A stretch of DNA of 64,000 nucleotides, from positions 7,488 through 71,487 of the forward strand of contig NZ_CAMCVG010000001.1 of NCBI RefSeq assembly GCF_945881795.1, in the 5' to 3' direction. The position numbers and the translations under genes were made by a program. Of this stretch, positions 23,955 through 29,762 are shown in pieces (the first letter of the stretch is position 1; each line of letters begins with the position of its first letter). The DNA is from Rhodoferax sp. OV413. GTDB lineage: Bacteria; Pseudomonadota; Gammaproteobacteria; Burkholderiales; Burkholderiaceae_C. Under the pieces are notes generated by a model that worked only from the letters and a program-made list of their open reading frames with translations, was not told where the DNA came from and searched no databases.

Positions 23955-24030
23955 GCGGGAATAGCTCAGTTGGTAGAGCGCAACCTTGCCAAGGTTGAGG
24001 TCGAGAGTTCGAGACTCTTTTCCCGCTCCA
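23955..24030 (+). tRNA. tRNA-Gly (anticodon GCC)
   Basis: GCGGGAATAGCTCAGTTGGTAGAGCGCAACCTTGCCAAGGTTGAGGTCGAGAGTTCGAGACTCTTTTCCCGCTCCA. Cloverleaf fold with anticodon loop CTTGCCAAG and an encoded CCA. A TATAAT hexamer lies at 23935-23940. Confidence 0.95.
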
Positions 24031-25330: not shown

Positions 25331-25414
25331 GTAGCCAACGGACGAGTTCGCAATTCCTGACTACACTGCGCACTTCGCAAATTTTGCAGTGCACCATTTT
25401 TTGGAGCTAGATCG

Positions 25415-26497
25415 ATGAGTTTGATTCCCGCCACCATCCTGACCGGCTTTCTCGGTTCCGGCAAAACCACGCTTCTGAAGCGGGTGCTGGCCGAGGCCCA
25501 CGGGCAGAAGATTGCCGTGATCGAGAACGAGTTCGGCGAAGAAAACATCGACAGCGACATTCTGGTGAGCGACACCAACGAGCAGATCATCCAGATGAGC
25601 AACGGCTGCGTCTGCTGCACCATCCGGGAAGACCTGCGCACCACGCTCAAGGACCTGGCTGAGAAAAAGCGCAAAGGCGAGCTGGACTTTGAGCGCGTGG
25701 TGATTGAGACCACCGGCGTGGCCGACCCCGGCCCCGTGGCCCAAACCTTCTTTATGGACGACGAGATCGCAGAGACCTACCTGCTGGACTCCATACTGAC
25801 CCTGGTAGACGCCAAACACGCCGCCCAGCAACTCAACGACCGGCAGGAAGCACGCCGCCAGATTGGCTTTGCCGACCAGATTTTTATCAGCAAGTCCGAC
25901 CTGGTGAGCCCGCAAGAGCTCGACGCCCTGATGCACCGCATCAAGCACATGAACCCGCGCGCCCCGCAAAAAGCGGTGCATTTTGGCGATGTGGCGCTGA
26001 AAGAAGTGTTCGACCTGCGTGGATTCAACCTGAATGCCAAGCTCGATATCGATCCGGACTTCTTGAAGAGCGATGACCACGACCACGACCACGCGCATGG
26101 CGAGCACTGTGATCACCCCTCACACGCGCATGAAAAAGCGCATGGGCATGACCACGCCCACGGAGATGACCACGGTCATGGGCACCACCATCACCGCGAT
26201 GACGATGTGAAGAGCTTTGTCTTCAAGTCCGAGCGCGCTTTCGACCCCGCCAAGCTGGAAGACTTTCTGGGCGCCATCGTCAATATCTACGGCCCGCGCA
26301 TGCTGCGCTACAAAGGCGTTCTCTATATGAAGGGCACCGAGCGCAAGGTGATCTTCCAGGGCGTGCACCAACTCATGGGCAGCGACCTCGGGCCGGCCTG
26401 GGCGCCGGGTGAGGTGCGAATGAGCAAGATGGTGTTCATCGGCATCGATTTGCCAAAGGACATTTTTCTGCAGGGCATGGAGCAGTCGCTGGTCTGA
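25415..26497 (+). CDS. COG0523/CobW-family G3E GTPase metallochaperone with His-rich insert
   Basis: P-loop GFLGSGKTTLL and the metal-binding motif GCVCC. His/Asp-rich tract DHDHDHAHGEHCDHPSHAHEKAHGHDHAHGDDHGHGHHHH, followed by a CobW C-terminal domain. Confidence 0.85.
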   Translation: MSLIPATILTGFLGSGKTTLLKRVLAEAHGQKIAVIENEFGEENIDSDILVSDTNEQIIQMSNGCVCCTIREDLRTTLKDLAEKKRKGELDFERVVIETTGVADPGPVAQTFFMDDEIAETYLLDSILTLVDAKHAAQQLNDRQEARRQIGFADQIFISKSDLVSPQELDALMHRIKHMNPRAPQKAVHFGDVALKEVFDLRGFNLNAKLDIDPDFLKSDDHDHDHAHGEHCDHPSHAHEKAHGHDHAHGDDHGHGHHHHRDDDVKSFVFKSERAFDPAKLEDFLGAIVNIYGPRMLRYKGVLYMKGTERKVIFQGVHQLMGSDLGPAWAPGEVRMSKMVFIGIDLPKDIFLQGMEQSLV

Positions 26498-26582
26498 GCC
26501 GGCCGGCAGTTGCGAATGGCGCGAAAGAACACTGTCAAGAACTTACCGCATACTCGCGCCACTAAAAAAGTCTGGGAGTGAT

Positions 26583-28016
26583 ATGTTTGTCTCGCTTTTG
26601 CAACTCATGGGATTTCCCGCAGCGAAGCCTGTACACTCGCGCGCCGAAGAAACCCGCTCTGACGGAGCCTCGGAATCCGTCACGGCGACAGCTGCCCCCA
26701 GCGATGATGCGCAGGATCTACCTGCCGGGAGACCCACAGTGAAATCGAAATCCTCAAAAAAAGTCACGGTGAAAAAAGACTCGGGTAAAGCCGCTTCGAA
26801 AGCCAAAAAAGGCGCGGTCTCCGAGGGTATTGCTAAAGCGGACTCCCCGAAAAAACTCGCCAAGACAGCTGATAAAGCAGCGGAGAAAGCAGTTGCGAAA
26901 GCCATTGATAGAGTGGCTGAGAAAGCTGTGAAGTCTTCCAAGGCCCCCAAACCCGTTGCAAAGCCTGTCGCAAAGCCCGCTGCAAAAGCTGTTGTTGCCA
27001 AACCCGTTGCCAAGGCCGCTGTCAAAGCGGCCGTGAAGGCCCCTGTCAAAGCGCCCTCGAAAGCGCCTGTCGCCACCAAACCGAGCGGCAAAGTCGCTGT
27101 GAAACCTGTGCCATCCACTTCCAGCAAAACCGTGGCTAAGCCTGTAGCTAAGCCCACCCCCAAAGTAACAGCCAAGCCGGTCGCCAAGCCTGTAGCAAAA
27201 ACTGTGGCCCAACCTGCGGTCAAGACACCGGTGAAGGTACCGGTGAAGGCTGCAGCCAAGGCCTCGCCCCAAGCGCCTGCAAAGAGTGCCGCCCCCGAGC
27301 CCAAGGCCAAGGCAGCGGTCCCAGCGCAAAAACCAATCCCTGTGGCCAAGGTCGTGGCAGCACCCGTTGCCGCCGCGGCAGTGCGTGCGGCGCCCGTGGC
27401 GGGCACGCCCGTGCCGGCCAAGGCCGGTCGCCCTTCATCGCGCCTGGCGCAGTTGACCGTACCTTCCATGGCCCAGTCGGTTGCCTCCACGGCTGCCAAG
27501 GCCAGCTACAACCAGACCGAGTCCGCTCCGCGCATCGTTCCCGTGATTCCTGCTATCGTGAAAAAAGACGCCAAACTCGCTAACAACTGGAAGAGCAAGC
27601 CGGTCGCCGAACTGACGGACGCTGAAGTCCTGGCCATGCCGGATGCCGAGTACATGAATGAAGTCCAGATGGCCTTCTTCCGGCTTAAGCTCACCGCCCT
27701 GAAGCGCGACATCCTGGCCAATGCCGGCGAAACCACCGAACACCTGCGCGAAGACTCCTCCGTGGTTCCCGATCCCGCTGACCGCGCCACCATCGAAGAA
27801 GAGCATGCCCTCGAACTGCGCACCCGCGACCGCGAGCGCAAGCTGCTCAAGAAAATCGAGCAATCTATTTCCCGCATCGACGCCGGCGACTACGGCTACT
27901 GCGACGAGACCGGCGAAGCCATCGGCGTGGGCCGCCTGCTGGCCCGCCCGACGGCCACCCTGTCGCTGGAGGCGCAGCAGCGCCGCGAGCTCAAGCAAAA
28001 AATGTTCGGAGACTGA
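26583..28016 (+). CDS. DksA-like RNA polymerase-binding protein lacking the Cys4 zinc finger, fused to a long Lys/Ala/Pro-rich N-terminal domain
   Basis: The C-terminal 140 aa align by eye with E. coli DksA (YMNEVQMAFFR, coiled-coil tip PDPADRAT, ELRTRDRERKLLKKIE, GDYGYCDETGEAIGVGRLLARPTATLSLEA). The N-terminal ~330 aa are KPVAK-type repeats in the same frame. RBS GGGAG lies before the ATG. Confidence 0.7.
   Translation: MFVSLLQLMGFPAAKPVHSRAEETRSDGASESVTATAAPSDDAQDLPAGRPTVKSKSSKKVTVKKDSGKAASKAKKGAVSEGIAKADSPKKLAKTADKAAEKAVAKAIDRVAEKAVKSSKAPKPVAKPVAKPAAKAVVAKPVAKAAVKAAVKAPVKAPSKAPVATKPSGKVAVKPVPSTSSKTVAKPVAKPTPKVTAKPVAKPVAKTVAQPAVKTPVKVPVKAAAKASPQAPAKSAAPEPKAKAAVPAQKPIPVAKVVAAPVAAAAVRAAPVAGTPVPAKAGRPSSRLAQLTVPSMAQSVASTAAKASYNQTESAPRIVPVIPAIVKKDAKLANNWKSKPVAELTDAEVLAMPDAEYMNEVQMAFFRLKLTALKRDILANAGETTEHLREDSSVVPDPADRATIEEEHALELRTRDRERKLLKKIEQSISRIDAGDYGYCDETGEAIGVGRLLARPTATLSLEAQQRRELKQKMFGD
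26946..27264 (+). repeat. 15-bp-periodic coding repeat (KPVAK/KAPVK pentapeptide array)
   Basis: Reiterated AAR-CCN-GTN-GCN-AAR units are visible in the DNA and in the translation PKPVAKPVAKPAAKAVVAKPVAKAAVKAAVKAPVKAPSKAP... Confidence 0.6.
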
Positions 28017-28049: not shown

Positions 28050-29762
28050 ATGGCACACAAAGACGAACGCCCCGGCCTGCTCTCCAAGGTCGCGATGTTC
28101 GTCCGCAACCCGACCAAAGACTGGTCGGAGTTGAACCCTCCGGATTCCCGGCCCGATAGCGCGCACGACAAGCTGGCCCTCAAGGCCATGATCGAGCGCA
28201 AGCGCCAGAACGACTTTGTGCGCAAGCGGGAGTTCGACCATCTGCGCAAACTCCGCAATCGCGACCCCGCCGCTACCGCCAGCCAAAGCCGGCCCTCTTT
28301 TTTCCAGAGCAGCATCGCGTCCGACCCTGACGGGCGGGCCACCACGCTCAAGAAGATTGATGAAATCGAGGCCCAGATGTCACGCCAATGGTGGCGTGCC
28401 AAGCTGGACGGCGGCACTGTGCAAGGGCCGCTGCCCTCCGCCGTGCCCGACGCGGCGGCTCCCGAGACCCGTCCGGCGGTGCGCGCGTTTGAGACCGCGC
28501 CGCTTGCGCTGCCCTCCGCGTTCAAGACCACGGTGCCCCTCGGGCTGGGTAAACGGCCCGCGCCGTCCGGCTCCCCGGTTGACGAGCCTCCCACCGAATA
28601 TGCAGCCACCGGCTTGGGGCCGGACATGCTGGACCTCGAGCTCGGGCCGCGCCCGCCGCACAGCGGGCCGGTAACCCACATCAGCGATGCGGGGGAGTTG
28701 CGATTTTCCACCTCCGACCTGTTCGCGATCGACATCGAGGATGTAGAAACCGATCCCGACTTGGAGGAAGCCGCCATCCGGTTTGCCAATGGCAATGACG
28801 CAGGGGCAGAAGCCGGGCTGGTTCAGGCGCTGGCCTCCGCGAAGACCCCCGGTGGCATGGCCGCCAACTGGGCTGCCGCGCTGCTCGACCTCTACCGTGC
28901 CACCGGCGACCAGGCCAAGTTTGACCGCGCCATCGTGGACTACGCCCCATGGTGGCAGGGCCGCCTGCCCGTGTGGGATGCAGACCTGCAGGGCCGCGCG
29001 GCCTGCGGCAGCGCCGCAGCGCCAGATCCCCTGGAGGGCGCTGCGATACCGGTGCTGTGGTCCAGCCCTGCGGTGCTCGATGCGCACAGCATGGAGTCCT
29101 TGCGCGCGACATGGTCCGGGCAGCCCGCGCCCTGGGCGCTGGACTGGCGGCAGCTCGAGGCGATTGCGCCCGAGGCCATGTCTCACTTGGGCGAATTTCT
29201 GCGCCGCGTCTGCGATGAGCCGGTCGGACTGCGATGTGCCGGAGGGTCCGCGCTGCTGGATGCGCTGCGCACCGTTGCCCCCGCGGGCGACCGGTCGGTC
29301 GATCCGGCCTGGTGGCATGCGCGGCTCAATGCCTTGCGCGCCATGGGCGATCTCGATGCATTTGAGCTGGTGGCCCTGGACTATTGCGTCACCTACGAGG
29401 TGTCGCCACCCGCTTGGGAATTGCCGCGCTGTGATTACGCAGCCCTCTCCGATGCGCCCTCCCACGCGATGGAGCTGGTTGGCAATATCAGCGGCATTGT
29501 CAGCGGCAATATCAGCGGTGATGTGGCCGGCATTCTGTCTGCCATCGACGCTGCGCCGCGTGGGGCCGGCCCAATAGTCGTGCCATGCCGCCGTCTGGTG
29601 CGGATTGATTTTGCTGCCGCCGGCAGCATCCTGAACTGGGTTGCAGCCCGCCAGTCCGAGGGGCGCATCGTGCAGTTTCAGGACGTGAACCGGCTGGTCG
29701 CGGCATTTTTCAATGTCGTCGGCATCCACGAGCACGCGCGGGTCATGCTCCGTCCCTTGTAG
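28050..29762 (+). CDS. Hypothetical protein with two STAS-like modules
   Basis: 570-aa ORF. Charged N-terminus (KLALKAMIERKRQNDFVRKREFDHLRKLR), then a Pro-rich linker, then two copies of a helical segment plus a STAS-like segment (LDWRQLEAIAPEAMSHLGEFL... and VRIDFAAAGSILNWVAARQSEGRIVQFQDVNRLVAAFFNVVGI). The domain call is tentative. Confidence 0.45.
   Translation: MAHKDERPGLLSKVAMFVRNPTKDWSELNPPDSRPDSAHDKLALKAMIERKRQNDFVRKREFDHLRKLRNRDPAATASQSRPSFFQSSIASDPDGRATTLKKIDEIEAQMSRQWWRAKLDGGTVQGPLPSAVPDAAAPETRPAVRAFETAPLALPSAFKTTVPLGLGKRPAPSGSPVDEPPTEYAATGLGPDMLDLELGPRPPHSGPVTHISDAGELRFSTSDLFAIDIEDVETDPDLEEAAIRFANGNDAGAEAGLVQALASAKTPGGMAANWAAALLDLYRATGDQAKFDRAIVDYAPWWQGRLPVWDADLQGRAACGSAAAPDPLEGAAIPVLWSSPAVLDAHSMESLRATWSGQPAPWALDWRQLEAIAPEAMSHLGEFLRRVCDEPVGLRCAGGSALLDALRTVAPAGDRSVDPAWWHARLNALRAMGDLDAFELVALDYCVTYEVSPPAWELPRCDYAALSDAPSHAMELVGNISGIVSGNISGDVAGILSAIDAAPRGAGPIVVPCRRLVRIDFAAAGSILNWVAARQSEGRIVQFQDVNRLVAAFFNVVGIHEHARVMLRPL

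Follow-up and report, generated by a model that had tools for sequence, protein, structure and literature searches.

A predicted zinc-independent DksA with a polycationic N-terminal tail in Rhodoferax sp. OV413 and other Comamonadaceae

The dksA gene described here lies in a stretch of 64,000 nucleotides (nt) of contig NZ_CAMCVG010000001.1 from Rhodoferax sp. OV413, referred to as the window throughout. Its maximal open reading frame (ORF) encodes, in succession, a short N-terminal peptide, a lysine-rich tract, a conserved linker and a DksA module devoid of a zinc finger, and it overlaps at its 5′ end with two conserved nucleotide boxes (Table 1). The gene is flanked by genes for a COG0523 GTPase and for a protein with a STAS_2 domain.

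Table 1. Features of the dksA locus; positions refer to the window.
Feature	Position	Strand	Basis
Maximal ORF, 477 amino acids (aa), ATG to TGA: N-peptide, K-rich tract, conserved linker, DksA	26583..28016	+	ORF list; homologues
Upstream in-frame 52 codons from ATG 26583 (GGGAG 26576-26580 ahead), N-peptide and/or regulatory leader	26583..26738	+	
Box1, ATG(A/T)TTGTCTCG(A/C)TT(T/C)TGCAACTGATGGGTTT, conserved as nucleotides	26583..26615	+	Relatives' alignment, nhmmer
Box2, CCTG TACACT CGCGCGCC, candidate -10 hexamer and GC-rich discriminator	26628..26645	+	Conservation
Conserved Shine-Dalgarno GGGAGA (26727-26732), 6-nt spacer, GTG (26739-26741)	26727..26741	+	58 loci
Polycationic K/A/P/V tract, residues 53-278 (~226 aa), KPVA-type tetrapeptides	26739..27416	+	Composition, AF2, homologues
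Conserved non-repetitive linker, residues 279-340, AKAGRPSSRLAQLTVPSMAQSVASTAAKASY ... VKKDAKLANNWKSKP	27417..27602	+	120 homologues
DksA module, residues 341-477: coiled coil, globular region without zinc finger, C-terminal helix	27603..28013	+	
Coiled-coil tip D397-P-A-D400-R-A402 (DxxDxA)	27771..27788	+	Aligned to E. coli D71/D74/A76
Former zinc-ligand positions C440 (27900), T443 (27909), S461 (27963), A464 (27972)	27900..27974	+	1TJL alignment
COG0523/CobW-family GTPase with His-rich insert, upstream neighbour	25415..26497	+	Pfam/NCBIfam
570-aa protein, C-terminal STAS_2 its only recognisable part	28050..29762	+	Pfam

The gene product ends in a true DksA module, as a preliminary description of this DNA had proposed for its last 140 residues. 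The module matches the Pfam families DksA_N (PF21157; residues 362-432, E = 2e-27, 95.6 bits against a cutoff of 27) and zf-dskA_traR (PF01258; residues 435-469, E = 4e-10, 40.1 bits against a cutoff of 24.9), and it reaches 140 bits with the NCBIfam equivalog TIGR02420 (dksA), above the cutoff of 115.5. The C-terminal 140 residues align with E. coli DksA (1TJL) at 113 bits, without gaps over 124 residues, and with P. aeruginosa DksA2 (PaDksA2; 4IJJ) at 102 bits. In the AlphaFold2 (AF2) model, helices 360-390 and 398-433, a hairpin at 436-448 and a helix at 458-475 make up the DksA fold. The only significant Foldseek matches are DksA, DksA2 and complexes of RNA polymerase with DksA, headed by 1TJL, 4IJJ, 7KHI and 5VSW (Foldseek probability 1.00). 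The tip of the coiled coil, PDPADRAT, was correctly recognized at the outset: it aligns with E. coli PDPVDRAA, and its DxxDxA pattern is invariant in 59 homologues. Residues R417, K420, L421, K424 and R455 match E. coli R91, K94, L95, K98 and R129, and R125 is kept as well; E. coli I136 is replaced by Leu, and K139 by Gln465, with R467 and R468 nearby. We take R91, K94, L95, K98, R129, I136 and K139 to be the contacts of E. coli DksA at ppGpp site 2, a list that reportedly goes back to Ross 2016 and Molodtsov 2018. Both Q465 (27975-27977) and T414 (27822-27824), the latter standing in place of E. coli N88, are invariant in the Comamonadaceae homologues; N88 is reportedly the site of the 'super-DksA' change N88I.

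The four-cysteine (C4) zinc finger, CxxC-N17-CxxC, is absent. In the gap-free alignment C440, T443, S461 and A464 stand at E. coli C114, C117, C135 and C138, so three of the four zinc cysteines are replaced, and the resulting C-T-S-A pattern is invariant in homologues. The loss of zinc ligands, suspected earlier, is thus confirmed, and the possibility that an alignment would restore the cysteines falls away. Since functional DksAs without the finger are known, the C4 finger defines the canonical subtype and not the DksA family.

Ahead of the module the frame runs through two regions of very different character. The polycationic tract, which follows 52 acidic, non-repetitive residues, has a net charge of +43 and a pI of 10.8, lacks aromatic residues and consists to 79% of K, A, P and V. 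Its lysines are spaced by four in 25 of 48 intervals, KPVA occurs six times, and KPVA, PVAK and VAKP are its most frequent words. Tandem Repeats Finder (TRF) reported only short degenerate arrays with periods of 12 and 24 nt. The repeat is therefore a tetrapeptide and not the pentapeptide first described, and the tract, bounded by the acidic N-terminus and the linker, is shorter than the ~330 residues then assigned to it. Given this degeneracy at the DNA level, we regard the tract as compositional low complexity and not as a recent tandem array. It is predicted to be disordered, with AF2 confidence (pLDDT) below 50 over most of its length. Between relatives both its length and its sequence are hypervariable, with the K/A/P/V composition kept, and its nonsynonymous divergence (dN) is 0.33-0.66 against a synonymous divergence (dS) of at least 2. 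The linker, also written AKAGRPSSRLAQLTVPSMAQSVASTAAKASY ... KKDAKLANNWKSKP, varies little or not at all at many of its positions across 120 homologues and matches no Pfam or NCBIfam family. AF2 gives low pLDDT for residues 279-316, a stretch that includes Met296, and helical order begins at about residue 324.

The tract had been likened to AlgP and to histone H1. The K-P-x-A tetrapeptides, the charge and the predicted disorder bear this out, but no Pfam or NCBIfam family matched the tract even at E ≤ 10, the curated H1-like family PF07382 (HC2) included. Apart from the product of the window itself, a protein search for homologues of the tail returned a single Ros/MucR protein whose tail is of a similar kind. 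The latter (P0122), encoded outside the window, is a 264-aa Ros/MucR-family protein (PF05443) whose C-terminal tail is in KPAA/KPVA style, which suggests that such tails join several kinds of DNA-associated proteins. Two long antisense ORFs, at 26543-27499 (-; 318 aa) and 26754-27329 (-; 191 aa), cover the K-rich tract. Their translations are low-complexity sequences rich in Gly, Ala, Thr, Leu and Phe, and since the third codon positions of the longer one coincide with those of the sense frame, it carries no independent signal; we take both as by-products of composition.

Whether the tract is translated at all could be addressed by comparing start regions. A scan of species-representative genomes yielded 80 loci (designated by L numbers) from Rhodoferax, Curvibacter, Polaromonas, Variovorax, Acidovorax, Limnohabitans, Ramlibacter, Giesbergeria, Simplicispira, Hylemonella, Xenophilus and others, which served for comparisons of both start codons and gene neighbourhoods. 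Without regard to frame, we looked for a Shine-Dalgarno sequence followed by GTG (AGGAG[AGT]-N5-7-GTGA[AC]) within 1.3 kb upstream of the DksA module. The motif occurs exactly once in 58 loci and is in frame with DksA in all 58, across 49 different distances between GTG and module, from 102 to 316 codons. That the frame is kept over so many tract lengths shows that the tract is translated, and the proposed fusion of DksA to a long Lys/Ala/Pro polycationic tract thereby gains its main support. In two loci (L049 and L071) the conserved GTG follows a stop codon at a distance of 0-1 codons and must therefore be the start there. For the window, a start at GTG 26739 (codon 53) certainly predicts a 425-aa product. 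By this comparison the gene call of the source genome (P0121; 27231-28016, +; 261 aa), which begins at an internal GTG within the K-rich tract and leaves 216 ORF codons unannotated, is too short. A start at the internal Met296 (MAQSVAST), with the repeats left untranslated, had been named as the case that would overturn the fusion; it is excluded by protein-level conservation of the linker, unbroken across and upstream of Met296.

The region upstream of the GTG is conserved in a way that is not simply that of a coding sequence. About 12 variable nucleotides, fixed in number, separate box1 from box2, and nhmmer found the combined element in 47 of 81 sequences, once in each and always upstream of dksA. 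Box2 is single in the window and, in genera in which no dksA ORF includes it, reads TACA(C/A)TCGCGCGCC. In the upstream codons dS is only 0.3-0.6, compared with 1-2.5 for the DksA module, and over codons 31-60 dN and dS are nearly the same. The codons GTC TCG, CAA and GTA CAC TCG CGC GCC are nearly invariant at their wobble positions, and they draw on AT-ending codons seldom used in this genome. The context of the element also changes between genera. It is fused in frame to dksA in Rhodoferax, Curvibacter, Polaromonas and Ramlibacter; elsewhere it forms a free-standing upstream ORF (uORF) of 25-77 codons (40 in L002, 77 in L068 and 69 in L073, where the uORF stop overlaps the dksA GTG as ATGACGTGA). 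In L013, L016, L036, L043 and L053 it is retained with the ATG lost, and in Variovorax (e.g. tctcTATACAATCGCGCGCC), L014, L015 and L038 box2 alone is found, outside any ORF. We infer from this pattern that box1/box2 is a regulatory element of dksA, in which box2 most likely provides a -10 hexamer, TACACT, and a GC-rich discriminator. Promoters that DksA and ppGpp repress characteristically have a GC-rich discriminator after the -10, and the dksA gene of E. coli is itself under feedback control of this type. A transcript starting at the element could encode only the protein that begins at GTG.

Other explanations of this 5′ region were considered and set aside. A structured RNA found no Rfam match at E ≤ 10, a minimum-free-energy z-score of -0.34 and 0 pairs in RNAalifold over 18 sequences, and the peptide LQLMGF of box1 as a β-clamp-binding motif was dropped once the nucleotide-level conservation appeared. 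Inspection of box1 by eye against the sigma-54 (TGGCAC-N5-TTGC), CRP/FNR and LexA consensus sequences gave no convincing fit. A second leader motif, GGTATAAC, is present between box2 and the Shine-Dalgarno–GTG in several genera (L002, L003, L023, L030, L035, L044, L045, L047, L053, L059, L060, L066, L072-L074 and L080) and absent from the leader in the window; in Variovorax it forms part of a small hairpin, cGGGG-TATAA-CCCCg.

The ATG at 26583 had been put forward as the start, with a ribosome-binding site, and part of this holds. GGGAG does precede it, and the distance from ATG to GTG is a multiple of three in all 34 ATG-bearing loci, in 12 length classes from 105 to 219 nt. Over these 34 intervals frame 0 is free of stops, with up to five in frames 1 and 2. 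That 35-73 upstream codons are kept open in Rhodoferax, Curvibacter, Polaromonas and Ramlibacter argues for their translation. One could thus propose that the 477-aa protein is the main or only product, that M[FI]VS[LI]LQLMGF..KPVHSRA is a functional protein motif, for instance one that binds a partner or marks the protein for degradation, and that AGGAGA..GTG simply codes for conserved Arg-Arg..Val. Besides the strictly kept frame, wobble-type variation at codons 8, 10, 11, 12, 15 and 16, modest AF2 confidence at residues 1-10 and the fact that gene callers start many homologues at this ATG are in keeping with such a proposal; the same N-terminal peptide, M[FI]VS[LI]LQLMGF, begins the 358-468-aa homologues among the best 120 matches listed. 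We nevertheless consider it somewhat unlikely. GGGAG is present ahead of the ATG in about half of the loci and no Shine-Dalgarno sequence in the other half, whereas the one before the GTG is universal, and GTG is the sole possible start in the two loci with the upstream stop. Moreover, the same nucleotide element appears elsewhere as a separate uORF, without an ATG or as box2 alone, and within it wobble positions as well as rare AT-ending codons do not vary. ATG 26583 is therefore probably not the main or only start: the product is expected to be the 425-aa protein, possibly accompanied in this clade by a 477-aa form.

Comparison with relatives indicates that this architecture is real, family-wide and common in Comamonadaceae. 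The preliminary description had called for a look at the domain architecture of relatives and had thought the combination unusual. A protein search gave at least 8000 matches at E ≤ 1e-5; the best 120 listed are 358-468 aa long and, where named, come from Curvibacter, Rhodoferax or Comamonadaceae and are labelled DksA. Every locus with enough sequence has an N-terminal extension, the shortest, in Giesbergeria, Simplicispira and Acidovorax, measuring 102-126 codons from GTG to module (about 60 of them linker) and the longest, in Limnohabitans, 316 codons. A K-rich extension (at least 80 aa, at least 12% Lys, net charge of at least +15) is found in 34 of the 145 nearest representative clusters, with module identity to the window protein down to 53%. 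In another large DksA clade, of 242-392 aa, PF07382 (histone H1-like HC2) is recorded beside the DksA domains. The architecture is thus not unique, and the pairing of a histone-like tail with DksA is already known from DdbA of Streptomyces (PMC3643593), while thousands of long proteobacterial forms are filed as plain DksA. Our search of the literature on N-terminal extensions of DksA and on DksA in Comamonadaceae found no description of the present protein, and Crawford 2016 contains nothing on Betaproteobacteria.

Taken together, these results make it fairly probable that the gene encodes the ordinary, probably primary, zinc-independent (C-T-S-A) DksA of Comamonadaceae, made as a long product in which a polycationic tail and a linker precede the DksA module. 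In such a protein the module would insert its coiled coil into the secondary channel of RNA polymerase and act with ppGpp without zinc, like PaDksA2 and Rhodobacter sphaeroides DksA. The tail would bind polyanions through its bulk charge, as do the tails of AlgP and PhaF and the N-terminal domain of DdbA; the drift of tail length and sequence at constant composition fits this mode of binding. Its main target would be DNA, bound non-specifically, and possibly polyphosphate (polyP) too, and the DNA-bound tail may hold DksA on the nucleoid close to transcribing polymerase. A promoter at box2 would fit feedback control by DksA and ppGpp. More tentatively still, the two nested starts and the dksA-specific control element in the first 63 nt might mean that two isoforms (477 and 425 aa) arise from two transcripts, or that a leader peptide and a stringent-type promoter tune DksA, with the tail on what appears to be the family's sole DksA tying stringent control to the nucleoid or polyP; we regard this as a doubtful extension.

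Alternatively, the main partner of the tail might be polyP or RNA, or the tail might drive condensate formation, in which case DksA would be docked or sequestered on polyP granules in starvation and not on the nucleoid. The tail of AlgP, of the same KPAA/KPVA type, is located at polyP granules and requires its repeats for this (PMC9239181), and the charge-dense, disordered tract, free to vary in length and sequence with its composition kept, would suit such a partner. However, the tails of AlgP, PhaF and DdbA bind DNA too, and binding to DNA and to polyP are not mutually exclusive. We regard polyP, RNA or condensates as the principal target with some reserve, as a rather unlikely variant.

The view of this protein as the usual DksA, and not a spare one, draws in part on how widespread its zinc-free pattern is. 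We searched the DksA module against 1.8 billion representative proteins and read the ligand pattern in the best 150 clusters. Nearly all have C-T-S-A, with a few C-T-T-A or C-T-C-A, and among these clusters are short forms of 144-150 aa, from Zoogloea and Ca. Ichthyocystis, to which NCBI gives the name DksA. A search for a Zur box (pattern TGTTATNNTATAACA, up to three mismatches) gave 0 matches in the 64 kb, an alignment of the regions upstream of the COG0523 gene from 66 loci showed no AT-rich palindrome, and no second DksA is encoded within the 64-kb window. With C-T-S-A as the norm, a gene order kept among relatives and a search for Zur-like boxes that came up empty, dksA here is probably the usual, and likely primary, zinc-free DksA of related Betaproteobacteria.

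The competing proposal is a DksA2-type spare, that is, a Zur-repressed, zinc-sparing paralogue co-expressed with the COG0523 metallochaperone only under zinc starvation, with a canonical C4 DksA encoded elsewhere for routine duty. The protein had indeed been described as DksA2-like, and to some extent this is justified: the zinc ligands are lost, the former zinc region is identical to PaDksA2 at 22 of 32 positions and to E. coli DksA at 15 of 32, and the adjoining COG0523 gene recalls the PA5535-PA5536 pair. Some DksA2 paralogues, moreover, retain one Cys (PMC11672702). Yet the coiled coil and tip are nearer to canonical DksA than to DksA2 (33/74 identical positions in the coiled coil with the E. 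coli protein, 26/73 with PaDksA2), the TIGR02420 equivalog cutoff is passed, and the neighbourhood near mraZ is conserved. Added to the missing Zur-like palindromes and to the normality of C-T-S-A, which extends to Ca. Ichthyocystis with its longest contig of ~2.1 Mb, these points leave a zinc-regulated spare very improbable. What the likeness in the zinc-free region and the common COG0523 neighbour suggest is a shared origin with Pseudomonas dksA2. Scarcely credible is the proposal that the long frame ahead of the module arose by chance from the composition of GC-rich, repetitive DNA and that only a short DksA is made, of 261 aa or from Met296: the source gene call, the long antisense ORFs over the same DNA and the atypically low GC content at third codon positions (GC3) of the tract may hint at it, but the comparative data already contradict it, given the frame kept in 58 of 58 loci across 49 lengths, the conserved Shine-Dalgarno–GTG, the linker conserved upstream of Met296 and an antisense frame that carries no signal of its own.

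Several points nevertheless weigh against our interpretation of the gene as encoding a tailed, standard DksA. The likeness of the tail to AlgP and H1 is one of composition and repeat period, without detectable family homology. The codon use of the tract is atypical, with a GC3 of 0.58 against ~0.79 in neighbouring genes, a Lys AAA:AAG ratio of 30:19 against 23:39 in the neighbours and more A/T-ending Ala and Pro codons than is usual for the genome. With Gln at the position that we take for the ppGpp site-2 contact K139, synergy with ppGpp could differ. A second dksA, of the C4 type, is possible elsewhere in the genome, our scan having covered the window. As to the promoter, no convincing -35 lies 16-18 bp from box2, and a simple sigma-70 consensus scan called no promoter either at box2 or upstream of the ORF; terminator-like matches in the same scan were at background level. 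Since the scan made no call, the promoter reading of box2 is drawn only from conservation and from the pattern of TACACT/TACAAT followed by CGCGCGCC. Finally, because the ATG frame is so strictly kept in this clade, part of the conservation of box1/box2 may be at the level of the peptide.

The gene order rlmI-COG0523-dksA-STAS...mraZ-rsmH is kept in Rhodoferax, Curvibacter, Polaromonas, Variovorax, Acidovorax, Limnohabitans, Ramlibacter, Giesbergeria and Simplicispira, and places dksA near the dcw cluster. The COG0523 gene, already noted in the preliminary description as the next-door neighbour, adjoins dksA in 73 of the 80 loci, the rest being mostly short of upstream sequence, and the STAS gene lies directly downstream of dksA in 67 of the 80. 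The GTPase has a His/Asp-rich insert of ~45 aa (HDHDHAHGEHCDHPSHAHEKAHGHDHAHGDDHGHGHHHH), and among NCBIfam models it comes closest to the YjiA-like PRK11537, with a score below cutoff, and not to ZigA. Its adjacency holds although the DksA here has no zinc site. Upstream of the COG0523 gene the window has a TACACT hexamer (in 25362-25392), which in relatives belongs to a conserved cTTGA-N(7-9)-TACACTCCCCACC motif; in the window the hexamer is followed by an imperfect palindrome, GCACTTCGCAAATTTTGCAGTGC, which recurs in part, in the closest loci only (L006 and L034). Farther upstream, a tRNA-Gly(GCC) gene (23955-24030, +) lies just ahead of rlmI, with GGTATATAATCGCTCC in front of it, where a -10-like TATAAT leads into GC-rich sequence.

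DksA has been studied almost entirely as a free zinc-finger protein of ~150 aa. In Comamonadaceae and other related clades, what the databases call 'DksA' lacks the zinc site and carries a polycationic tail of ~40 to 260 residues. If that tail holds DksA on DNA or polyP, then the effective concentration of the regulator, the speed of its search for polymerase and the response to starvation would all change, and easily grown bacteria such as Variovorax, Acidovorax and Curvibacter would allow one to test how the stringent response is linked to the state of the nucleoid or polyP. The comparison is of practical use as well. Gene callers differ widely over the length of the product, which they put at 261 aa in the source genome and at 358-468 aa in relatives, and the conserved Shine-Dalgarno–GTG would make a sound annotation rule.

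Among known systems, E. coli DksA (1TJL, 5VSW, 7KHI) shares with the window protein the fold and the residues D71/D74/A76, R91, K94, L95, K98, R125 and R129. It differs in that three of its four zinc cysteines are replaced in the window protein, K139 is Gln, N88 is Thr and 340 residues are added at the N-terminus. PaDksA2 (PA5536, PDB 4IJJ) has the same zinc-independent fold, a first ligand pair C-x-x-T, a last pair x-x-x-A and a COG0523 gene next door. Unlike the window protein, which has one cysteine (C440) and S461 at the second position, it keeps two that can form a disulfide (C96 and C117; C-T-C-A). It is ~134 aa long and tailless, Zur-repressed and present alongside a C4 DksA1, whereas the window protein is tailed and no Zur box was found; the tips differ too, SDEADLAS in DksA2 against the canonical-like PDPADRAT. 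DksAs without the C4 finger that serve as the functional DksA of their lineage are known in R. sphaeroides (RSP2654) and S. meliloti (SMc00469) (PMC9239242). These proteins, likened here by description and not by sequence, are alphaproteobacterial and short, and have no polycationic tail.

For the tail, the closest parallels are AlgP and PhaF, which share the disordered Lys/Ala/Pro K-P-x-A tetrapeptides and the high positive charge. The tail of AlgP, with 25 KPAA and 7 KPVA repeats, a net charge of +55 and a variable repeat number, binds DNA, and its repeats are needed for its location at polyP granules (PMC9239181). In AlgP and PhaF, however, the tail is C-terminal to a helical domain, whereas in the window protein it is N-terminal to DksA and its repeats are more degenerate. 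The whole architecture is most nearly matched by DdbA (SCO2075) of Streptomyces coelicolor, with its N-terminal lysine-rich, H1-like region and C-terminal DksA-like module with two tip aspartates; in vitro the N-terminal domain binds DNA and condenses it, a relA phenotype is suppressed when DdbA is overexpressed, and its authors regard the N-terminal half as specific to streptomycetes (PMC3643593). Yet DdbA keeps the C4 zinc finger that the window protein lacks, and its N-terminal domain of ~138 aa has five S/T-A/T-A-K-K pentapeptides in place of a ~226-aa KPVA tetrapeptide tract and a ~60-aa linker. It is actinobacterial and one of three DksA paralogues, whereas the window protein is apparently the standard DksA of its lineage. 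We therefore infer from the missing C4 finger and the other repeat type, with SCO2075 compared by description, that the two arose independently. What sets the window protein apart from DdbA is the absence of the zinc finger, a different repeat type joined to a conserved linker, the apparent status of the protein as the primary DksA and the arrangement of nested starts and leader at its 5′ end.

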